IMG/VR virus record: IMGVR_UViG_2713896790_000003
Direction: 5' to 3' (one strand)
DNA: 21,197 nt
DNA from: a virus
Lineage: Duplodnaviria; Heunggongvirae; Uroviricota; Caudoviricetes
In this document: positions 1-19,072 of the stretch, piece after piece
Numbering within the stretch: the stretch's first letter is position 1
Layout of the letters: the number at the start of each line of letters is the position of its first letter
Program-made: the position numbers and the translations under genes
Notes under the pieces: model-generated
The model's database searches: none
Seen by the model: the letters and a program-made list of their open reading frames with translations, nothing else
Told to the model about the DNA's origin: nothing

Positions 1-1770
1 CGTCAGCGCATTCAGCCCCAGTGTCAGACTGTCTTTTATGACCTGGAATGCCGGGCCAGCCACTCCATTCAGTTTCGGAGTAACCGTGGCACTGCCGGCG
101 GTGAACACCAGCTCCAGCGTCTGCCAGTCGTTACTGTAATTCCCGAACTCGCCCAACTTTGTGTTTCCGGCTTTCTTGTGATGCATCAGATTCAGTTTGC
201 CGTCTGTGGTCTGGGTGAAGAACGACATCAGGAACGGGTTACCAGTCCCGGTCATCGCCACGACGTCAGGTAACGCTACATCGGTATACAGATAAATTCC
301 CAGACCGAACTGGTTGTTGGTCAGTGCGCCTGACAGTCGAAACTTACAGCTCAGTCTGCCACCCCGTGTCAGCAGGGAGACTGCGTCATCCACCGGGCGC
401 GTCAGGGACCAGGCTTTATTGCTCTGCTTGGTGATCTTAAATACACCATCTGACAACTGAATTCCGCCATTCTTAATGCTCCAGCCCTGCGCAGCAGCGT
501 CTCCGGCTGTCGGCAACAGGGAGATTGTGCGTATGGATGCATCTTCAGACGGCCCCAATGGCGTGTCGCCGCCGGGCGAGGGTTTGATTTCCGGTGCCTT
601 ACCACTAATGAAGGCTAAGGTGCGACCGGCTACGTTCAGAATAGCAGTTGCCATACGATCGGGAATAATGCCACGACGCGCCCATGAGCTGAAATGCGTC
701 GGGCGATTTGATGATACCCAGTTTTTGTTCGTTCGGGATGCCGAACCGTAATAACCAGACCCGGCAATATCAGGATCTTCTGACGGGTTGTTTGTCGGTG
801 TATTAACTCCGCTACCATCGGTCATAAAGGGAACAAAATAAATCTGCTGGGATTCTTTACCTTTATATGCACCATATACCACTTCATATTGCGTACCGTG
901 TTCTTGTTTCCACGCGTATGTCGTGTCGCCACAAATCCAGGGGACTGATGCCGGACTTCCACCGTGACACTGCGCTGCCAGCCCGGCAAGGTCAGCACGG
1001 AACTGCTGTACCATTGCAAGAAATGCTGCTGGCTGCTGGGCGTAACTGGCATTCGTCATATCGAATTCCCCCTGCATCCAGCATATCGCCAGCAAAACGT
1101 TTTTCGGGTTTTTCTGCAATGCTGCCTTCGTGCGGAAAAGCAGATCCTGATATAACGGCTTACCCACTCCCCAGCGAGCCGAATCCTGACTGGCTCCCGT
1201 GGACTCGCTGAATGTCCCCTCCGTGCCCTGGGTGAATGCCGAACCACCACGACAGCATGGTACCAGCAGGATCCCCGCATTATTAGGGATATACGGAAGC
1301 AGTTTTTTGGCAATATGTAAGCCCTGTCCGACACAGCCGTACTGCCCTTTGCTCAGGTCAGCCCGGGGATGGTTAATCGTACTCATATCCTGAACATCAT
1401 GCAGACAATGGTCAGCAGGAATGATGTCGTTAAATACGCATACTTCACCACCGGGAGTCACTGTGTTACGACGGGCCAGTTGCTTAATGCGCGGATGGGG
1501 CGCATCGTATGAATCCGGAAGCGGAAGCCCTTCACCGTAAGCCATGGCATTGGATTGCCCGGCCAGTACGATGACGTAGTACCACTCCGGCTCAGTTGCA
1601 CCACTGACGACCACATCACCTTCTGCTGCAATCGCCTGCATCAGGGTATAAGGGGTTATGGCCACCGGACTACCAAACGGCTGCCAGCCCTCCTTCAGTT
1701 TTTGTGTCAGTCGTTTCGCAAGGTCTGACGGCGATGCCGCCCTGACCACGTCATAGTGTTTAAATGCCAT
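1..1770 (-). CDS. Partial prophage sialate O-acetylesterase-like protein (NanS-p / YjhS-like); 3' end runs off the window
   Basis: Minus-strand frame open from ATG at 1770-1768 to position 1, checked codon by codon (590 aa, no stop). N-terminus MAFKHYDVVRAAS..., a GQSNAM motif typical of SASA/DUF303 esterases. Position downstream of the Q-tRNA block matches where 933W-type phages carry this gene. Not in the ORF track because it has no stop in the window. Confidence 0.7.
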   Translation of the reverse strand, partial: MAFKHYDVVRAASPSDLAKRLTQKLKEGWQPFGSPVAITPYTLMQAIAAEGDVVVSGATEPEWYYVIVLAGQSNAMAYGEGLPLPDSYDAPHPRIKQLARRNTVTPGGEVCVFNDIIPADHCLHDVQDMSTINHPRADLSKGQYGCVGQGLHIAKKLLPYIPNNAGILLVPCCRGGSAFTQGTEGTFSESTGASQDSARWGVGKPLYQDLLFRTKAALQKNPKNVLLAICWMQGEFDMTNASYAQQPAAFLAMVQQFRADLAGLAAQCHGGSPASVPWICGDTTYAWKQEHGTQYEVVYGAYKGKESQQIYFVPFMTDGSGVNTPTNNPSEDPDIAGSGYYGSASRTNKNWVSSNRPTHFSSWARRGIIPDRMATAILNVAGRTLAFISGKAPEIKPSPGGDTPLGPSEDASIRTISLLPTAGDAAAQGWSIKNGGIQLSDGVFKITKQSNKAWSLTRPVDDAVSLLTRGGRLSCKFRLSGALTNNQFGLGIYLYTDVALPDVVAMTGTGNPFLMSFFTQTTDGKLNLMHHKKAGNTKLGEFGNYSNDWQTLELVFTAGSATVTPKLNGVAGPAFQVIKDSLTLGLNALT

Positions 1771-1962
1771 GAATCCTCCCGGGCGGGATAATGTTGTGAG
1801 TCAGATAAGGAGCAGGCTGAAGTCCGGAAGTTACAGGACAATGGCAGAAGGGAGACTACAGCCCGCAATTCGAAAAAGACCGCGCAGTTGCGCAGAGTGA
1901 TTACTATGGGGTATTATTCGCCAGCTGAAATATTACTTCACGTTTTATTGTTTATTCCTTGC

Positions 1963-1992
1963 CGCCCGCGTCTCCCAGCGCGGGCTTTTTTT
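1963..1992 (+). terminator. Putative rho-independent terminator, plus-strand orientation
   Basis: GC hairpin cccgcg-tctcccag-cgcggg followed by cttttttt on the plus strand; the minus-strand reading lacks a T-run. Confidence 0.4.
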
Positions 1993-2002
1993 GTCCATAA
2001 GA

Positions 2003-2236
2003 AAGCCCCTCCGGAGAGGGGCTAAAGCCGCGTATCTGTATCATCATGCACATGGTGCCGGGTGCCTCCCGGTGAGTTCAGTCCGGTGCCACTAAACCCG
2101 CGTCATTCTCGTTTTGATAATCAGAGATTATACCGTCACCAGTCGCCCCTCCGCTCAGGGGGATTCACCATGCGAAATTTTTTTAACAAATGCCCAGTCT
2201 GACAGGCAACTGTCAACTTACTGAATTGTGAGCAAC
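2003..2236. repeat. Copy 1 of a duplicated ~230-bp element at the stx-equivalent locus
   Basis: Shares with copy 2 the blocks aaagcccctccggagaggggct (8-bp stem hairpin), catggtgccgggtgcctcccggtga.ttcagt, cccctccgc.cagggggattcaccatgc, ttttaacaaa, tgtcaac and ctgaattgtgag in the same order. Confidence 0.7.
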
Positions 2237-2488
2237 ATAGCATTTAACGGGGAACCTGTTTTCTGCAGTAAAAAGGCCCACCGGAGCGGATGGGCCTGGA
2301 AGGATAGCGGTCATGTGATGCCGGTTTCCCGGTAACTCAGCACCGGTATCTGAGTCAACGTTTTCTCTACTGGGTCATTTCCGATACGCCCTGCCTGCTG
2401 ACAGGCTTTCATCACATCTGAAAATATAGCACCCTGACTGATACTGTAGTACCTAAGGTTCCAGAAACTGTGATGTATCCGGCACAGA

Positions 2489-2700
2489 AAAGCCCCTCCG
2501 GAGAGGGGCTGGAGAGTGGCGCTATGTGCCATTGCATGGTGCCGGGTGCCTCCCGGTGAATTCAGTACCAGCACCTGAATCCGCGATTATCCCATATACC
2601 TACTCGCTGATTGCCCCTCCGCACAGGGGGATTCACCATGCCAGTTTCTTTTAACAAACTCCCCGCAAACCAGACAACAGTCAACCGCCTGAATTGTGAG
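2489..2700. repeat. Copy 2 of the duplicated ~230-bp element, abutting the 3' side of the Arg(TCT) tRNA
   Basis: Same ordered sequence blocks as copy 1; roughly 75-85 percent identity by eye. On the minus strand the hairpin is followed by ttttct, so it may act as a terminator. Confidence 0.7.
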
Positions 2701-2745
2701 ACATTTAAAAAAAAGCCCGCAAAAGCGAGCCAGGGAAAATAAGTG

Positions 2746-2822
2746 TGGCGCGTTGTACTGGATTCGAACCAGTGACCGATTGCTTAGAAGGCAATTGCTC
2801 TGTCCGGCTGAGCTAACAACGC
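2746..2822 (-). tRNA. argO: tRNA-Arg (anticodon TCT)
   Basis: Minus-strand sequence GCGTTGTTAGCTCAGCCGGACAGAGCAATTGCCTTCTAAGCAATCGGTCACTGGTTCGAATCCAGTACAACGCGCCA folds as a canonical cloverleaf: acceptor GCGTTGT/ACAACGC, D-stem GCTC/GAGC, anticodon loop CTTCTAA, T-arm ACTGG-TTCGAAT-CCAGT, encoded CCA. Gene name by analogy with the 933W tRNA trio. Confidence 0.85.
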
Positions 2823-2835
2823 AGGATACAGATAA

Positions 2836-2912
2836 TGGACCGCCTTCGGGGACCCGAACTCCGCGCAACCAGCTTCGAAGGCTGGCGCTCTTTCCTGATG
2901 AGCTAATGGCGG
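2836..2912 (-). tRNA. argN: tRNA-Arg-like (anticodon TCG), atypical and possibly degenerate
   Basis: Minus-strand CCGCCATTAGCTCATCAGGAAAGAGCGCCAGCCTTCGAAGCTGGTTGCGCGGAGTTCGGGTCCCCGAAGGCGGTCCA: good D-arm and anticodon arm (CCAGC-CTTCGAA-GCTGG), but an A-A mismatch in the acceptor stem, an A-C mismatch in the T-stem and T-loop TTCGGGT lacking the usual A58. Exact 5' end uncertain by 1 nt. Confidence 0.55.
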
Positions 2913-2919
2913 TATGTGA

Positions 2920-2995
2920 TGGTGGCCCTTGCTGGATTTGAACCAGCGACCTGGCGATTATGAGTCGCTCGCTCTCACCACTGAGCTAAAGGGCC
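2920..2995 (-). tRNA. ileZ: tRNA-Ile2-like (anticodon CAT, lysidine type) or tRNA-Met
   Basis: Minus-strand GGCCCTTTAGCTCAGTGGTGAGAGCGAGCGACTCATAATCGCCAGGTCGCTGGTTCAAATCCAGCAAGGGCCACCA: canonical cloverleaf, anticodon loop CTCATAA, T-loop TTCAAAT, encoded CCA; closely resembles the E. coli ileX-type sequence as I recall it. Confidence 0.85.
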
Positions 2996-3044
2996 GGGAG
3001 CAGAATAATAATGGTGCGTAATTAATTCTGCAATCTCATCCGTT

Positions 3045-4094
3045 TCAAACGATTAAATCCTGAACTTCCCTGACTGTCTGCTCAAAACGTCCGGTCTCCA
3101 GTTCAACGCCAATCGCACGACGCCCGAGCGCCAGTGCCGCTTTTACCGTTGAACCTGAGCCCATAAAAAAATCTGCAACCAGGTCACCCGGACGACTGCT
3201 TGCGCTGATTATCTGCTGCAGCATTTCTGCCGGTTTTTCGCACGGATGTTTCCCGGGATAGAACTGCACCGGTTTATGTGTCCACACATCCGTGTACGGC
3301 ACCTGCGCCGTCACACCAAAATACCGCCGCAGATGCTTATATTCACTCTGCAGCTCCACATACTGCCGGTTCAGTGACGTATACGTATCCACCAGCTGGT
3401 GGTGGGGCTTTTCCAGTTCACCGCGCTGATGTTTCTCTTCTGCCACCCGGGCAAACAGCGACTGTAATTTCAGATAATCGCTTTCGTTCGGTAGCTGCCA
3501 CTGACTGGCACTGAACCAGTGCGACACCATGTTTTTCTTTCCTGTGGCATCTGCAATCTGTTTTGCCGTTATCCCCAGGGCCGCGCGCGCATCACGAAAG
3601 TAAGAAATCAGCGGGGCCATCACATGCTGTTTCAGTGCACTGCCCTTCGCCGCATACCCGGCATCTTTCGGACGATACGGCCCCTGATAATGTTCCGCGA
3701 ACAGAATGCGCTCTGTGGCGGGGAAATACGCCCGCAGGCTTTCCTTGTTGCATCCGTTCCAGCGTCCGGACGGCTTCGCCCAGATAATATGGTTCAGCAC
3801 ACTGAAGCGTTCACGCATCATGATTTCGATATCAGATGCCAGGCGATGACCACAGAACAGGTAAAGACTTCCGGCAGGTTTCAGCACCCGCCAGAACTGC
3901 GCCAGACACTGGTCCAGCCACTTCAGGTAATCATCGTCGCCCTTCCACTGGTTATCCCAGCCTTCAGGCTTCACTTTAAAGTACGGCGGGTCCGTGACTA
4001 TCAGGTCAACAGAATTTTCGGGTAACGACCGGATAAATTCCAGGCAGTCGGCGTTGATTAACTCACAACTGGATATTTTTACAGTATTAAGCAT
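3045..4094 (-). CDS. Orphan DNA methyltransferase (beta-class, N6-adenine or N4-cytosine)
   Basis: 349-aa ORF, ATG start; catalytic motif DPPY (IVTDPPYF) near the N-terminus and SAM-binding FFMGSGST near the C-terminus, the order typical of beta-class amino-methyltransferases. No adjacent restriction endonuclease gene. Confidence 0.85.
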   Translation of the reverse strand: MLNTVKISSCELINADCLEFIRSLPENSVDLIVTDPPYFKVKPEGWDNQWKGDDDYLKWLDQCLAQFWRVLKPAGSLYLFCGHRLASDIEIMMRERFSVLNHIIWAKPSGRWNGCNKESLRAYFPATERILFAEHYQGPYRPKDAGYAAKGSALKQHVMAPLISYFRDARAALGITAKQIADATGKKNMVSHWFSASQWQLPNESDYLKLQSLFARVAEEKHQRGELEKPHHQLVDTYTSLNRQYVELQSEYKHLRRYFGVTAQVPYTDVWTHKPVQFYPGKHPCEKPAEMLQQIISASSRPGDLVADFFMGSGSTVKAALALGRRAIGVELETGRFEQTVREVQDLIV

Positions 4095-4228
4095 GGATCA
4101 TTAAGCCTGTCTCTGATAGGCTCATTCTGCTTTTGCGCAAAGCAGTGGGCCTGAGGTTTGCTTGTGAACCCAACGCATGAGCAGATGGCTGGTGGGTGCC
4201 CCTAACACCCACCAGCCGCCCATTTACC

Positions 4229-4258
4229 ACAAATAAAAAAGCCTTCACTGCGGAAGGC
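4229..4258 (-). terminator. Rho-independent terminator (minus-strand)
   Basis: Hairpin gccttc-actgcg-gaaggc (4241-4258) with the plus-strand A-run 4232-4240 giving a U-run after the hairpin on the minus strand; overlaps the stop codon of the small ORF. Confidence 0.55.
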
Positions 4259-4442
4259 GTCTGTAACAACCGAACTGATAGTCTGCCAGACCCGCCATAA
4301 CCAGCTGGGTCAGTATTAACTGGCAGCGTTCGCGTGAAAGGTAAGTATTCTGCGCTATCTCCCCGACTGTCGCCGGTTCGGTAACGCTTAATTCATTAAA
4401 CACTACTCTGGCGGTTTCTGTCATATCCTGCTGTTTTAGCAT
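4245..4442 (-). CDS. Hypothetical small protein (65 aa) between two terminators downstream of Q
   Basis: ORF trimmed to internal ATG (MLKQQDMTETARVVF...) because the longer 94-aa frame would run over the upstream hairpin; purine-rich sequence before the ATG. May be leader sequence rather than a gene. Confidence 0.3.
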   Translation of the reverse strand: MLKQQDMTETARVVFNELSVTEPATVGEIAQNTYLSRERCQLILTQLVMAGLADYQFGCYRRLPQ

Positions 4443-4574
4443 GTCTTTTTCCCTTTCCCGGTTAACGTGACACACCAATAACTCTTGTCGAAAAAGCCAG
4501 CAAGCTGAAAGACAGGTATTCACCGCCACCAGCGCGTTTACTGTACTGACGCGATTTCAGTCATAAAAAACCCG

Positions 4575-4600
4575 CCAGGCGGCGGGGTGTAAAAAATCTT
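4575..4600 (-). terminator. Putative terminator or attenuator just downstream of the candidate late promoter (tR'-like)
   Basis: Hairpin ccccgccgcctggcggg followed on the minus strand by ttttttat. Confidence 0.4.
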
Positions 4601-4635
4601 CTAACGTCAGGCATAAAACGCCCATCGTTAGAGCA

Positions 4636-4663
4636 AATTTACCACAGATTCGGGAAAAATCAA
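4636..4663 (-). promoter_or_regulatory. Candidate late promoter (PR'-like) immediately after the Q-like gene
   Basis: Minus-strand TTGATT (4663-4658), 16-bp spacer, TAAATT (4641-4636). Placement after Q follows lambdoid architecture; the assignment is an inference. Confidence 0.3.
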
Positions 4664-4668
4664 CAACA

Positions 4669-5490
4669 CTATCGCGTTACCCTCTTTAACTGCCGCTCCG
4701 CCCATGCCTCTTCAATGTCAAACCGAACCACCAACGTATCGTAAAAGCGTTTCACTGATTTTTTCCACGTATCAAGCGTGATAGCACTCGTCACTTTGCA
4801 TATGGCATTAAATGCCTCCGTTGATGGTAGTCTTTCACAGCCACGACCACCACAACGCTGGCAGTCTCTGATAACAGGCATACCACGTTTTACCGACTCT
4901 TCACGATGAATGGCGACACCACGCCCACGGCAATCCTTACAGGCGGTGGAAACCTCACCCTTTCCGCCACACTCCGGACAGGCAACTTTTACCACCTCCC
5001 TGACTTTTTTCCATTCTTCCCAGTAAGACGGATACACACCTTTCGTACACTTTGCCCATACCGGCGGCTTACCATCCGGATACTGGATCTTGTTTGTAAA
5101 AACCTCGCTTTCAATAAATTTTTTTCCGTGACAGCAGGAGCACTGTTTTTTGCTCGCCGCGCTACGGGCATAATCTTCAAACGCATACGAAGCCATAATA
5201 CGCATCACTGCCGGTTTTATTTCTGCCGGGAGTTTTCTTAACGCCGCCACGCGATCACACCGCCTGAGTGCATATTCTGTCAGCAATTCTGTTGCCCGCT
5301 CTCTGTCATTCATACTAATGCCCATTTTCCCAAGGAACGCAGAAAACCCCATCTCAGCCCGATTCTGTGTCATGCCCTGCGCGGCCATCACATCAGTGAT
5401 ACTCAGCGCATCTTTCGACGTTGAGGCCGATGCATCAGTCAGGCCGGGGGATTTTGGGGAGTAGTATTTCGGTAAATCTTCCAGTTTCAT
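4669..5490 (-). CDS. Q-like late antiterminator candidate with DnaJ-type zinc-finger repeats
   Basis: 273-aa ORF with ATGA overlap to rusA; sits between rusA and the late promoter/tRNA region; three to four CxxCxGxG-type motifs (CPECGGKG, CKDCRGRG, CQRCGGRG). Family assignment rests on position plus Cys motifs, not on recognised sequence identity. Confidence 0.55.
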   Translation of the reverse strand: MKLEDLPKYYSPKSPGLTDASASTSKDALSITDVMAAQGMTQNRAEMGFSAFLGKMGISMNDRERATELLTEYALRRCDRVAALRKLPAEIKPAVMRIMASYAFEDYARSAASKKQCSCCHGKKFIESEVFTNKIQYPDGKPPVWAKCTKGVYPSYWEEWKKVREVVKVACPECGGKGEVSTACKDCRGRGVAIHREESVKRGMPVIRDCQRCGGRGCERLPSTEAFNAICKVTSAITLDTWKKSVKRFYDTLVVRFDIEEAWAERQLKRVTR

Positions 5491-9484: not shown

Positions 9485-9640
9485 TTACTCCTCAGGTTCG
9501 TAAGCTGTGAAGACAGCGACCTCCGTCTGGCCGGTTCGGATTCGTACCTCGCAGAGGTCTTTCCTCGTTACCAGTGCCGTCACNATGACGGTTAAACAGA
9601 TGACGATCAGGGCGATTANCATCGCCTTTTGCTGCTTCAT
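9485..9640 (-). CDS. hokD: Hok/Gef-family type I membrane toxin, HokD (RelF)-like
   Basis: 51 codons MKQQKAMxIALIVICLTVxVTALVTRKDLCEVRIRTGQTEVAVFTAYEPEE with RBS AAGGAGAAG; matches E. coli HokD as I recall it. Two codons contain ambiguous bases (n at 9584 and 9599). The 70-aa track ORF is an in-frame upstream extension. Confidence 0.8.
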   Translation of the reverse strand: MKQQKAMXIALIVICLTVXVTALVTRKDLCEVRIRTGQTEVAVFTAYEPEE

Positions 9641-9841
9641 AGCCTGCTTCTCCTTGCCTTTCGGCACGTAAGAGGCTAACCTACGTGTGTAGAGCATAGA
9701 TATGGCCTCAGATTAATGTTAAGCGTCTTGCCGGACGCGTAATGTTAACTGGGGCTTTTCTCTATCTGCCTTTTGGTGTTCATGCCTGAGACAGATAGCC
9801 TCAAGCACCCGCTGCAATTCTACTTAACTCTCCTTTTCCCG

Positions 9842-18703: not shown

Positions 18704-18761
18704 TTTCTGGTGACTTTTGGCGGTATCAGTTCTACTCCGTGACTGCTCTGCCGCCCTTTTT
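18704..18761 (+). ncRNA. dicF: DicF small regulatory RNA (ftsZ-targeting) with 3' terminator
   Basis: tttctggtgacttttggcggtatcagttctactccgtgactgctctgccgcccttttt is near-identical to E. coli K-12 DicF as I recall it (three or so substitutions), ending in a U-run. Confidence 0.8.
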
Positions 18762-19050
18762 AAAGTGAATTTTGTGATGCGGTGAATGCGGCTCAGCGCA
18801 CGCGGAACAGTTAAAACAAGCGGTCTTTTACGGGCGTAACGGGAATGCTCTGTATCCGACGTTAATTGTTAACTGGTTAACGTCACCTGGAGGCACCAGG
18901 CACCGCATCAACAAAGTTCACTTCGGTGATGAAAGGTAGAGAAAATGTTGAATGTAGCTATTGAAAACCAGAACGGGTGGAATTATAGTGCACCTGCACC
19001 TCATAAAACGGGTGCCGGGCGTGGAAACCCGAAATCATTCACGGCGCATA

Positions 19051-19072
19051 ACCGCGCTCAGGCGGTTTTTTT
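19051..19072 (+). terminator. Putative rho-independent terminator between dicF and the Rha-like gene
   Basis: Stem accgc / gcggt with loop gctcag, followed by ttttttt. Confidence 0.5.

Follow-up and report, generated by a model that had tools for sequence, protein, structure and literature searches.

What occupies the space between the tRNA cluster and the esterase gene in a lambdoid prophage that carries no Shiga toxin genes? The question was addressed in a window of 21,197 nt (the whole stretch of DNA analyzed; IMG/VR record IMGVR_UViG_2713896790_000003). An initial annotation had described the space as a toxin-free stx-equivalent locus holding two diverged copies of a structured element, which were read as possible promoter/terminator modules, small-RNA genes or recombination scars. 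The gap is most probably (probability roughly 0.8) an sRNA cluster in the late-operon 'moron' region of a stx-negative lambdoid prophage, consisting of three tandem genes and one convergent gene.

Position of the gap and of the stx site

The minus-strand order given in the initial annotation (Q, methylase, tRNAs, a gap of ∼1 kb, esterase) was confirmed by Pfam and tRNA calls. The Q antiterminator (4669-5490, PF03589) is followed by a DNA methylase (3045-4094, PF01555) and by an ileZ-argN-argO-type tRNA cluster (2746-2995), identified with ARAGORN and Rfam and comprising tRNA-Ile2/Met(CAT) at 2920-2995, tRNA-Arg(TCG) at 2836-2912 and tRNA-Arg(TCT) at 2746-2822, all on the minus strand. The tRNA order is identical in 933W and in Sakai Sp4 and Sp5. 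The sRNA array lies downstream of the cluster, within a gap of 975 bp that ends at the gene of a NanS-p-type sialate O-acetylesterase (Pfam DUF1737, SASA, DUF6645); this gene starts at 1770 on the minus strand and runs off the window (1-1770). The esterase start was located 145-850 nt beyond the last sRNA unit in 57 of 80 related viral loci.

The gap contains four ORFs (42-87 aa), none of which gave a match in a Pfam search, in keeping with the earlier view that it holds no credible ORF. The single PGAP feature in the gap is a pseudo-fragment. Terminator-like hairpins were enriched in 1600-4700, with 14 found against 3.3 ± 1.6 in shuffles. The terminator scan assigned 2701-2745 (minus strand) to the 3′ flank of the argO-like tRNA and its intrinsic terminator (stem 2731-2714, T-run to ∼2706). 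Two features were absent from the initial annotation: a third, divergent unit (2441-2263) and, on the plus strand, a convergent sRNA gene that ends at 1992. The ∼1-kb "empty" gap of this prophage type would thus hold four sRNA genes that are omitted or mis-called as pseudo-CDSs by standard pipelines.

The stx-flanking regions were compared. A tblastn search of the window with Stx2A and Stx2B found nothing (best E 0.25). Homology to 933W breaks after the T-run of the argO terminator and resumes 42 nt past the stxB stop codon, at CACAATTCAG, and the 933W counterpart of segment 2701-2745 is the 'terminator upstream of the stx genes'. In the window, the two flanks known from 933W meet at ∼2701-2706, so that "toxin-free stx-equivalent locus" was a correct description and the stx cassette aligns as an insertion upstream of the sRNA genes. 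As judged from these alignments, the empty stx site follows the argO terminator and precedes the first sRNA gene, at window ∼2701-2706.

The proposal that the element fills the slot in place of the toxin did not hold, because in 933W and Sp5 the element coexists with stx2AB. In 933W, STnc100 spans +75 to +280 past the stxB2 stop codon and is followed by the convergent gene AsxR and then the esterase; in Sp5 the element likewise follows stx2B at a distance of 75 nt. Among relatives without stx, phi296 and Sakai Sp4 have the element once each. The sRNAs are neighbors of stx and not substitutes for it, and the locus is mostly ordinary. The STnc100/EcOnc27 gene thus belongs to the phage backbone rather than to the toxin cassette, and the stx insertion point is pinned to a few bases. 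Variants in the EcOnc27/sRNA103 region have been reported as predictors of HUS (PMC12711010).

Three tandem units on the minus strand

The duplication of a ∼230-bp element was found to be real. The two copies lie on the minus strand at 2232-1997 and 2700-2484, as modules of ∼220-235 nt, and a BLAST search of the slot against itself returned them with E values of 3e-15 and 1e-13. Global alignment gave 175 identical positions in 244 columns (72%). Identity in the repeat search was 80% between 2145-2232 and 2613-2700 and 97% between 2051-2082 and 2535-2566. The copies are offset by 468 bp at their 5′ ends and 487 bp at their 3′ ends because of indels, and the latter value agrees with the spacing of ∼486 bp noted previously. 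Both hairpins that had been described as shared, one with an 8-bp stem and a second GC hairpin, were recovered in each copy: AAAGCCCCTCCGGAGAGGGGCT is identical at 2002-2023 and 2489-2510, and the GC hairpins are at 2145-2162 and 2613-2630. A third conserved hairpin is at 2058-2072 and 2542-2556. By segment, the scaffold is 81-89% identical, the internal loop 38% and the pre-terminator linker 53%; internal loop and linker are the variable segments of the modules. The hexamer CUCACA, a PasD target motif, opens each module (at 2232 and 2700), a 6-mer being too short to interpret.

Membership of STnc100 (RF02076) was assigned at the Rfam gathering score of 47 bits over the full model. A covariance-model scan identified both copies as full-length STnc100, and a model of our own (R1) recognized them too. 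Copy 1 (1997-2232, minus strand) matched RF02076 over 2202-1993 with 165.4 bits (E 1e-38, model positions 1-206) and scored 191 bits with R1. Its leader (2232-2174) contains TTGACA at 2216-2211 and TGTTAAAAA at 2188-2180; the putative 5′ end of the closing helix is G2173. A linker (2050-2024) and a terminator (2023-2004) precede a short U-tail. The stretch 2232-1771, which includes copy 1, is 91% identical to and colinear with the stx-negative phage phi296, and the element that follows stxB in 933W/Sp5 has 85% identity to 2231-2051. Copy 2 (2484-2700, minus strand) matched RF02076 over 2670-2480 with 136.3 bits (E 4e-31, model positions 1-206) and scored 200 bits with R1. TTGACT (2684-2679) and an extended -10-like motif, TGTTAAAAG (2656-2648), lie in its leader (2700-2642), and the closing helix putatively starts at G2641. 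The scaffold extends to 2535 and is followed by a linker (2534-2511), a terminator (2510-2491) and a U-tail. Copy 2 is 99.6% identical to the sole STnc100 of Sakai prophage Sp4.

An RNAalifold consensus of nine copies gave a closing helix around three hairpins, followed by a linker and a terminator hairpin. The scaffold of ∼110 nt comprises the 8-bp closing helix, the three hairpins and the invariant unpaired motifs GAAU and GCGGA. Among 75 distinct phage copies, 98.3% of alignment cells were paired and double changes were present in 25 of 34 pairs; for 103 distinct copies from many Enterobacterales genera the values were 94.6% and 30 of 34, all of these counts being made on model-fitted alignments and so biased toward structure. 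As controls for the 75 phage copies, slid alignments were 41-55% paired and none of 500 shuffles reached the observed values. In other genera, many homologues cover the scaffold alone (model positions 31-140) and have no terminator. One core-only copy of this kind, also without a terminator, adjoins DicF in the window (18747-18931).

The initial interpretation was to be dropped if the repeats were ordinary intergenic sequence, occurring once in related phages and lacking conserved structure and transcript. The element is indeed single in the relatives, whereas its structure and the transcripts of its family are well supported. The reading as small-RNA genes was correct, given the full-length STnc100 matches and the Northern blots and Hfq-CRAC published for the family (PMC4104026, PMC7873438).

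A third unit lies between the copies, at 2263-2441 on the minus strand, and was assigned to the STnc100/PasD superfamily. Its score with Rfam STnc100 was 30.1 bits, below the gathering score of 47, which places it outside the family by that criterion; with R1 it scored 41.4 bits (E 1e-7) and aligned across the whole model. An extended -10, TGCTATATT, is near consensus at 2431-2423. The closing helix is formed by AUGUGAUG (2417-2410) and CAUCACAU and encloses three hairpins, after which come the linker ACCGCUAUCCUUCC, a terminator (2297-2274) and a UUUUU tail. The minimum-free-energy fold has the same architecture as copies 1 and 2. In hairpin 1, alleles of this unit differ by one compensatory change and two compatible ones. 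RNAalifold applied to five middle-type sequences, which vary little, returned an energy-driven consensus that did not reproduce the family architecture. The unit is present in 672 of 5426 complete E. coli genomes. Its identity is 51% to PasD and 57-60% to STnc100. Assignment as PasD itself was rejected on the 51% identity to the PasD2 region and the missing PasD seed. On these comparisons the middle unit is a separate divergent paralogue.

The closest described RNA is STnc100/EcOnc27 of Sakai Sp5, named sRNA103 in EDL933/86-24, which copies 1 and 2 resemble in structure, prophage position and the arrangement with a convergent partner. The present locus differs from it in having two full members and a divergent third in tandem instead of one, and no stx upstream. 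Linker and internal-loop sequences also differ, so the targets are probably different. PasD1 and PasD2 (EPEC E2348/69; EcOnc13) have the same scaffold architecture and scored 41 bits with Rfam STnc100 and 46 bits with R1. Like the array, PasD2 is directly upstream of an esterase gene, and it provides the superfamily's only mapped 5′ end. The identity of the units to PasD was nonetheless just ∼51-55% (55% for copy 1 and 51% for the middle unit, against the PasD2 region), the PasD seed UGUGAG was found in none of the three linkers, and a BLAST search of the slot against the PasD2 locus aligned the esterase start alone. PasD1 and PasD2 are Hfq-dependent sRNAs, abundant in Hfq RIL-seq, whose seed lies in the linker immediately before the terminator (PMC8550237), and the link between PasD and STnc100 has been described (bioRxiv 10.64898/2026.05.13.724894).

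Transcript ends and the convergent gene

A minus-strand promoter scan returned no consensus promoter for any of the three units, and the -10 hexamers of the STnc100 units, TAAAAA and TAAAAG, are without the consensus final T. Across genera an A/T-rich -10-like block is located 8-16 nt upstream of the closing helix, often with a recognizable -35 element or TG, and the promoter motif TTGTTAAAA was invariant in nine copies. In PasD2, RNA-seq places the 5′ end at the G that opens the closing helix, 7-8 nt after a TTGACT-18-TAAAAA promoter. At the 3′ side, copy 1 ends in UUUCUU and copy 2 in UUUUCU, U-tails shorter than strong binding by Hfq or efficient termination would call for.

EcOnc27 was recovered in Hfq-CRAC, and Northern blots showed it as RNAs of ∼235/247 nt, of which the 247-nt form was destabilised without hfq (PMC4104026 Table S2). 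The published Northern probe falls within the 933W STnc100 match. Probe sequences were used for this comparison because the Sakai coordinates of Tree et al. are offset from NC_002695.2 by ∼135 nt at Sp5 and by 0 at Sp4. RNAs of 235/247 nt would have to begin close to the module's 5′ boundary (window 2232 and 2700), whereas PasD2 and the -10-like motif point to a start ∼60 nt further downstream. The RNAs of the array may be longer than the PasD2-based start suggests, or may be processed from read-through transcripts.

The convergent gene, of EcOnc08/21/42 type, was assigned to 1884-1992 on the plus strand from the terminator scan and a probe match. Its terminator (1964-1985, T-run to 1992) faces that of copy 1 at a distance of ∼11 nt, and the gene takes the place held by AsxR in 933W. 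The reverse complement of the EcOnc08/21/42 Northern probe aligned to plus-strand 1884-1918 with 5 mismatches in 35, and is exact in Sakai Sp4. A candidate from Hfq RIL-seq in EPEC, E2348C_1409.E2348C_1408.IGR, is almost the same in sequence as positions 1939-1992. Where the gene begins is uncertain: it may start at ∼1924 (TTGCGC-18-TATTAT), at ∼1799 or, should the RNA have the length of ∼271 nt seen in Sakai, at ∼1720. With a start at 1799 or 1720 the RNA would be antisense to the esterase 5′ UTR or start codon.

An AsxR/AgvB-type anti-sRNA was considered for this gene and rejected, position alone being in common. Rfam scanning of 1500-4700 for AsxR (RF02703) and AgvB (RF02702) gave no match at E ≤ 1, while 933W scores 88 bits. 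AgvB, AsxR and EcOnc03 have a common conserved 3′ region of ∼42 nt, AGUAUCUCAUGC..UUGCCCGAACCCAYUCGGGC; the corresponding region here differs (CCUUGCCGCCCGCGUCUCCCAGCGCGGGC). An OmrA-B match to plus-strand 1904-1992 (25 bits against a gathering score of 40) was treated as chance.

Convergent sRNA dyads at the lambdoid 'moron' site were described by Tree et al. (2014), namely AsxR/EcOnc27, AgvB/EcOnc06 and an Sp4 pair of which EcOnc08/21/42 is one member. The present genes are likewise downstream of Q/PR′ and the tRNAs and upstream of the esterase, with facing terminators at 2023-2004 (minus) and 1964-1985 (plus), and homology to the Sakai Sp4 dyad region is 90-99.6%. They differ from those dyads in that the forward side has grown to three genes and the reverse gene is not of AsxR/AgvB type.

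Adjacent paralogous sRNA genes with conserved and variable parts are also found in OmrA/OmrB, PrrF1/PrrF2 and Qrr1-5. Each of those genes has its own promoter and terminator; they belong to the core genome, their regulators are known and their seeds are shared. In sequence and structure they are unrelated to the present units, in which it is the scaffold that is conserved while the putative seeds differ. The biology of sibling sRNAs has been discussed elsewhere (bioRxiv 10.64898/2026.05.13.724894).

Proposed function, alternatives and origin

The three forward units are alike in having an A/T-rich (extended) -10, a conserved scaffold, a variable single-stranded linker and an intrinsic terminator with U-tail. 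As in the family members characterized by experiment, each unit would be transcribed in the lysogen to give an RNA of ∼150-240 nt, bound by Hfq at its 3′ part. The RNAs would act in trans by base pairing, most likely via the variable linker or internal loop, and with a common scaffold the three units probably have different targets. Transcription from the moron and tRNA promoters runs into the unit terminators; on induction, Q-modified polymerase from PR′ would be expected to read through them, as lambdoid Q biology suggests. Trans base pairing of STnc100 members is suggested by Hfq binding and by PasD. Overexpression of sRNA103, which is EcOnc27, raises fimZ and espA transcripts (PMC7873438, PMC12711010). 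For espA the effect seems to be indirect (PMC5030294), and for pairing with fimZ the support is in silico only (PMC7873438).

It is rather unlikely that the units act mainly in cis, as a terminator stack that, in the lysogen, keeps transcription from the tRNA and moron promoters out of the esterase and lysis genes, is read through by Q-modified RNA polymerase alone and yields stable RNAs as by-products. Such a stack would fit the minus-strand terminator-like hairpins at 2510-2491, 2297-2274 and 2023-2004, the fourth after argO (2731-2714), the facing plus-strand terminator (1964-1985) and the location between PR′/Q and the lysis genes, and the purpose of the dyad arrangement has been called unclear in reviews (PMC7873438). 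A terminator, however, needs only ∼30 nt, whereas a scaffold of ∼110 nt is conserved with covariation in many genera, its unpaired nucleotides are invariant, and many homologues in other genera match over the scaffold only, without the terminator. Terminator and sRNA functions are not mutually exclusive. Also unlikely, and judged slightly more so, is that the RNAs are cut by RNase E from read-through transcripts (tRNA operon, moron or late PR′) in the manner of 3′-UTR-type sRNAs, with the conserved A/T-rich block serving as a processing or Hfq site and not as a promoter. The sizes of EcOnc27 (∼235/247 nt), which put its 5′ end at the module start ∼40-50 nt past the stxB stop codon, are consistent with processing, as are the lack of conservation upstream of the module start between contexts, the imperfect -10-like hexamers and the empty minus-strand promoter scan. 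Transcription from dedicated promoters is favored by the 5′ end of PasD2, 7-8 nt past TTGACT-18-TAAAAA, and the abundance of PasD in uninduced EPEC; by good -35/-10 pairs or TGn-extended -10 elements at a constant distance from the closing helix in unrelated genera; by the RpoD ChIP-exo signal reported at STnc100 promoters in Salmonella LT2 (PMC10794520); and by the near-consensus extended -10 of the middle unit, TGCTATATT.

Also considered, and judged improbable, was that illegitimate or unequal recombination, in the course of cargo exchange at the moron site, left copy 2 and the middle unit behind as debris without function. Alleles are mosaic and the 468-bp block 2700-2233 is missing from phi296 and Sp4, as debris would predict, but closing helix, hairpins, -10-like element and terminator are intact in all three units, the triple arrangement is kept in phages of ∼80% identity and in hundreds of E. 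coli genomes, substitutions in the middle unit preserve structure, and arrays of 2-5 units occur in other genera. Small proteins, such as an 87-aa ORF at 2311-2574 (minus) or ORFs of 42-46 aa on the plus strand, are a most implausible content of the gap. Mechanical ORFs exist, and short hypothetical or pseudo CDSs have been called here by PHANOTATE and PGAP in some records; against this, the ORFs had no Pfam match, the PGAP call is self-flagged as an incomplete pseudogene, alignments of the copies are rich in non-triplet indels, and substitutions track pairing rather than codons.

The whole array is ∼99% identical in E. coli ATCC 11775 and strain 55989, and region 1700-3100 was covered to at least 80% in 340 genomes. 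The triple array is also found in other phages at just ∼80% identity, and prophages across Enterobacterales repeatedly carry 2-5 units in tandem. The phi296 allele is a mosaic, its 5′ half matching copy 1 and its 3′ half copy 2, with breakpoints in conserved scaffold blocks. A recent tandem duplication was rejected because the copies are only 72% identical and each is far closer to an allele of another prophage (99.6% in Sp4, 91% in phi296). Judged from allele comparison, the array is a product of recombination among prophages with different alleles. The suggested "recombination scars" were therefore right as to the mosaic alleles and wrong as to the elements themselves, which are maintained structured genes. 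In a recent survey PasA and PasD copies were dispersed and not tandem. The STnc100/PasD superfamily, as seen here, does include tandem arrays, in which the scaffold is conserved and the linker regions diverge, and these occur in other genera as well as in common E. coli, both commensal and pathogenic, the type strain included. The basic published picture is unchanged; what is new, in a modest way, is the tandem array and the middle paralogue.

A wider reading is offered tentatively and is doubtful at present: the ∼110-nt core could be a general-purpose, protein-recognized scaffold that temperate phages of Enterobacterales equip with interchangeable seeds and build by recombination into tandem arrays of 2-5 genes. 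Speculatively, the protein, from host or phage, might be Hfq, or CsrA through GGA-containing loops. If this were true, the superfamily would be a modular 'seed cassette' system rewiring host post-transcriptional networks, and the three units would form one multi-specificity array. Core-only copies without a terminator, such as that beside DicF, hint at a role beyond that of classical base-pairing sRNAs.

Family identity of the repeated element

The minus-strand late region encodes a Q antiterminator (4669-5490, PF03589), a small ORF, an N6/N4 DNA methylase (3045-4094, PF01555), three tRNAs of ileZ-argN-argO type (2920-2995, 2836-2912 and 2746-2822), a gene-free slot of 975 bp and an esterase (ATG at 1770) with domain matches to DUF1737, SASA and DUF6645. 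Domain and tRNA identification bore out the gene order given in the initial annotation. The identical E. coli chromosome NZ_CM149869 carries the same annotation, with holin, lysozyme and Rz farther downstream. Terminator-like minus-strand hairpins were located past the Q stop (4669) and ahead of the methylase at 4571-4586, 4619-4635 and 4241-4258; the first two are in the tR' position after PR', the expected end of a short StxS/6S-like leader RNA. An Rfam match to the sok antitoxin RNA at 9635-9810 (-, 117 bits) implies that this prophage also carries a toxin-antitoxin locus of hok/sok type.

The duplicated, diverged element that had been reported in the slot is real. Repeat searching gave 80% identity between 2145-2232 and 2613-2700 and 97% between 2051-2082 and 2535-2566, and the 22-mer AAAGCCCCTCCGGAGAGGGGCT is identical at 2002-2023 and 2489-2510. 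The slot aligned to itself by BLAST with E values of ~1e-13 to 1e-15. Global alignment of the two modules, 2232-1997 (copy 1) and 2700-2484 (copy 2), gave 72% identity over 244 columns.

The slot was scanned with Rfam covariance models. Both copies gave full-length matches to STnc100 (RF02076, gathering score 47): copy 1 at 2202-1993 (-) with 165 bits (E 1e-38) and copy 2 at 2670-2480 (-) with 136 bits (E 4e-31). Small-RNA genes, one of the explanations offered initially, was thus the right one. A divergent middle unit between the copies scored 30 bits at 2441-2268, below threshold. The published Northern probe for EcOnc27 falls exactly within the STnc100 match of the Stx2 phage 933W and Sakai prophage Sp5, which identifies STnc100 as EcOnc27 of Tree et al. 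That RNA was found by Hfq-CRAC and Northern blotting as species of ~235/247 nt, the longer being destabilised without hfq (PMC4104026). In at least 8 Sakai prophages the same study found convergent sRNA pairs at the "moron" site, which follows PR'; the pairs are flanked by the moron on one side and a conserved ORF on the other. As cited in PMC7873438, PMC5030294 and PMC12711010, Gruber and Sperandio named this RNA sRNA103, and its overexpression raised fimZ and espA transcripts. A 2026 preprint (bioRxiv 10.64898/2026.05.13.724894) tied STnc100 structurally to the EPEC sRNAs PasD1 and PasD2. The array belongs to an already described family, in an already described setting.

Conserved scaffold and the middle unit

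A consensus structure was derived from an alignment of nine copies. Its parts are a closing helix of 8 bp, in which GCAUGGUG pairs with CACCAUGC; hairpin 1 (CCCCC...GGGG); an internal region that varies; hairpin 2 (8 bp); hairpin 3 (CCGGG-AGGCA-CCCGG); a variable linker; and the terminator hairpin. Identity between copies 1 and 2 is 81-89% in the scaffold segments, 38% in the internal loop and 53% in the linker. A covariance model (R1) was built and run on 80 viral contigs fetched via the hairpin-3 core. The resulting 75 distinct sequences have 98.3% of cells paired, with changes on both sides at 25/34 pairs; slid controls gave 41-55% pairing and no shuffle equalled the observed values. A second scan, using one genome per species and a degenerate core, located the element in many Enterobacterales genera, including Salmonella, Citrobacter, Enterobacter, Klebsiella, Kosakonia, Pantoea and Erwinia. 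In these 103 distinct sequences 94.6% of cells pair and 30/34 pairs covary. Fitting the alignments to the model favours the structure, yet the pairing exceeds that of the controls by a wide margin. The unpaired GAAU and a GCGGA loop are almost invariant, though not imposed by the search pattern.

The middle unit (2441-2263, -) aligned to the whole R1 model with 41 bits (E about 1e-7). Its minimum free energy fold has the family architecture built from other sequences: AUGUGAUG pairs with CAUCACAU to form the closing helix around three inner hairpins, and a short linker leads to a terminator of 9 bp followed by UUUUU. A near-consensus extended -10, TGCTATATT (2431-2423), ends 5 nt upstream of the closing helix's first base. 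Assignment as PasD was ruled out, the identity being 51% and the UGUGAG seed absent. The unit, in forms that fall into three identity classes, was present in 672/5426 complete E. coli genomes. In hairpin 1, one compensatory and two compatible changes separate two of its alleles. Phages PhiR5_2 and vB_EcoS-640R1 have the same three-unit layout at only ~80% overall identity. From its frequency, these structure-preserving changes and the retained layout, the middle unit is read as a maintained paralogue rather than debris.

Relation to stx and origin of the array

In 933W, STnc100 (208 bits) lies +75 to +280 past the stxB2 stop codon, directly followed by the convergent anti-sRNA AsxR (88 bits) and the esterase gene L0105. 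By pairwise comparison, the tRNA-proximal 45 nt of the slot (2745-2701), which include the terminator GGCTCGCTTTTGCGGGC with its T-run, share homology with the sequence described in 933W as the "terminator upstream of the stx genes". Homology then stops and restarts 42 nt past the stxB stop at CACAATTCAG, the module's first base. The stx cassette is therefore an insertion at ~2701-2706 relative to the window, in which no stx was found, and the sRNA module is placed by sequence comparison in the phage backbone. The proposal that a substitute occupies the stx slot was wrong, since 933W has both module and stx.

Two stx-negative relatives have one module each. Over 2745-2706 plus 2232-1771 the 530-bp slot of phi296 is colinear with the window and 91% identical; the Sakai Sp4 slot matches 2755-2489 (copy 2) at 99.6% identity and then 2082-1679 at 90%. 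Relative to both, the window has an extra 468-bp block (2700-2233) comprising copy 2 and the middle unit. Recent duplication was ruled out as the origin of the two copies: each copy is far nearer to alleles in other prophages than to the other, and alleles are mosaic. In phi296 the 5' half of the allele is that of copy 1 and the 3' half that of copy 2; at 3293-3498 of this contig the internal variable region is identical to copy 1 and the linker, AAUGGCACAUAGCGCCACUCUCC, to copy 2, which indicates recombination inside the conserved scaffold. The array arose by recombination among prophages.

Transcripts, the convergent gene and arrays elsewhere

TTGTTAAAA is invariant in 9/9 aligned STnc100 copies. 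It can be read as TGn joined to TAAAAA (or TAAAAG), a putative -10 ending 6 nt upstream of the closing helix's first G. RNA-seq places the 5' end of PasD2 exactly at this G (NC_011601 position 741157), preceded by TTGACT-18-TAAAAA. In other genera an A/T-rich block is equally far from the helix, and a clear -35 or a TG often accompanies it. Together these predict primary 5' ends near 2641, 2417 and 2173 and RNAs of roughly 150-180 nt. However, the EcOnc27 Northern sizes (235/247 nt) point to a 5' end at the boundary of the module, which corresponds to 2700 and 2232 here, so longer or processed species are possible. The modules start with CTCACAATTCAG at 2221-2232 and 2689-2700 (-); CUCACA is a motif enriched in PasD targets (PMC8550237 supplement), and its occurrence here is probably coincidence.

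Once a 135-nt coordinate offset is corrected, the Hfq-CRAC peak of EcOnc27 falls on the final ~80 nt of the RNA, which comprise hairpin 3, linker and terminator. Such a peak is consistent with Hfq binding in the 3' portion and with a putative seed in the linker, as in PasD. Published EcOnc coordinates (Table S2, PMC4104026) differ from NC_002695.2 by ~135 nt at Sp5 (AsxR, EcOnc27) and by 0 at Sp4 (EcOnc08/21); uncorrected, EcOnc27 seems only to "partially overlap" STnc100.

A strong plus-strand terminator (1964-1985, then T7) faces that of copy 1. When reverse-complemented, the Northern probe for EcOnc08/21/42 maps to 1884-1918 (+) with 5/35 mismatches, and matches exactly at the homologous place in Sp4. 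An EPEC sRNA candidate from Hfq RIL-seq, with seed CUUGCG, is nearly identical to positions 1939-1992. This convergent gene has the same place as AsxR in 933W; membership of AsxR/AgvB was ruled out by the Rfam scan. Its RNA would be antisense to the esterase start if ~271 nt long as in Sakai; a shorter RNA starting near 1924 is possible.

Most likely, the three forward units would be independently transcribed, Hfq-dependent sRNAs with a common scaffold and different putative seed segments, alongside one convergent sRNA. The terminators would have a second role as insulators that Q-modified polymerase reads through. The array RNAs are credited with expression, Hfq dependence and a trans-acting function by analogy with homologues; family membership, structure, context and evolutionary origin were shown by the present analysis.

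The full 1700-3100 region was at least 80% covered in 340/5426 complete E. coli genomes, and is ~99% identical in type strain ATCC 11775 and EAEC 55989. Two to four tandem units were present in 10/80 viral loci and stx upstream of a single unit in 6/80. The largest array met in an E. coli-type slot among these 80 has four tandem units (IMG/VR UViG_2861053794_000003, 2265-3380; 130, 103, 86 and 75 bits) between phage tRNAs and the esterase gene. Arrays of three to five STnc100-like units were located in Pantoea, Citrobacter braakii and Superficieibacter (L209 4087-5952, L194 6350-7858, L170 892-1987, L208 3713-5512 and L169 6323-7018), with five units reached, for example, in L209 of Pantoea. 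Many copies in other genera are core domain only; several units in these five arrays cover only model positions 31-140, the core without linker or terminator. A recent Pas survey described PasA and PasD copies as dispersed, not tandem, so tandem arrays in the superfamily are a modest addition to the searchable literature.

sRNA annotation was absent from all annotation records examined for these loci. Pseudo or hypothetical CDSs were called opposite the STnc100 strand at L001 4827-4952 (window 2527-2652, +) and, in phi296, 3097-3527. The recognisable core of a fourth, weak R1 match in the window (18747-18931, +; 33.5 bits, E about 2e-7) contains GGUGAAU and CACCUGGAGGCACCAGGCACC, with GAUGCGGUG/CACCGCAUC as a compensated closing helix; no terminator is present. 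This match overlaps a DicF match (18705-18756) at the 3' end of the latter and lies upstream of isrK (18996-19072) and C4 (19097-19184) matches.
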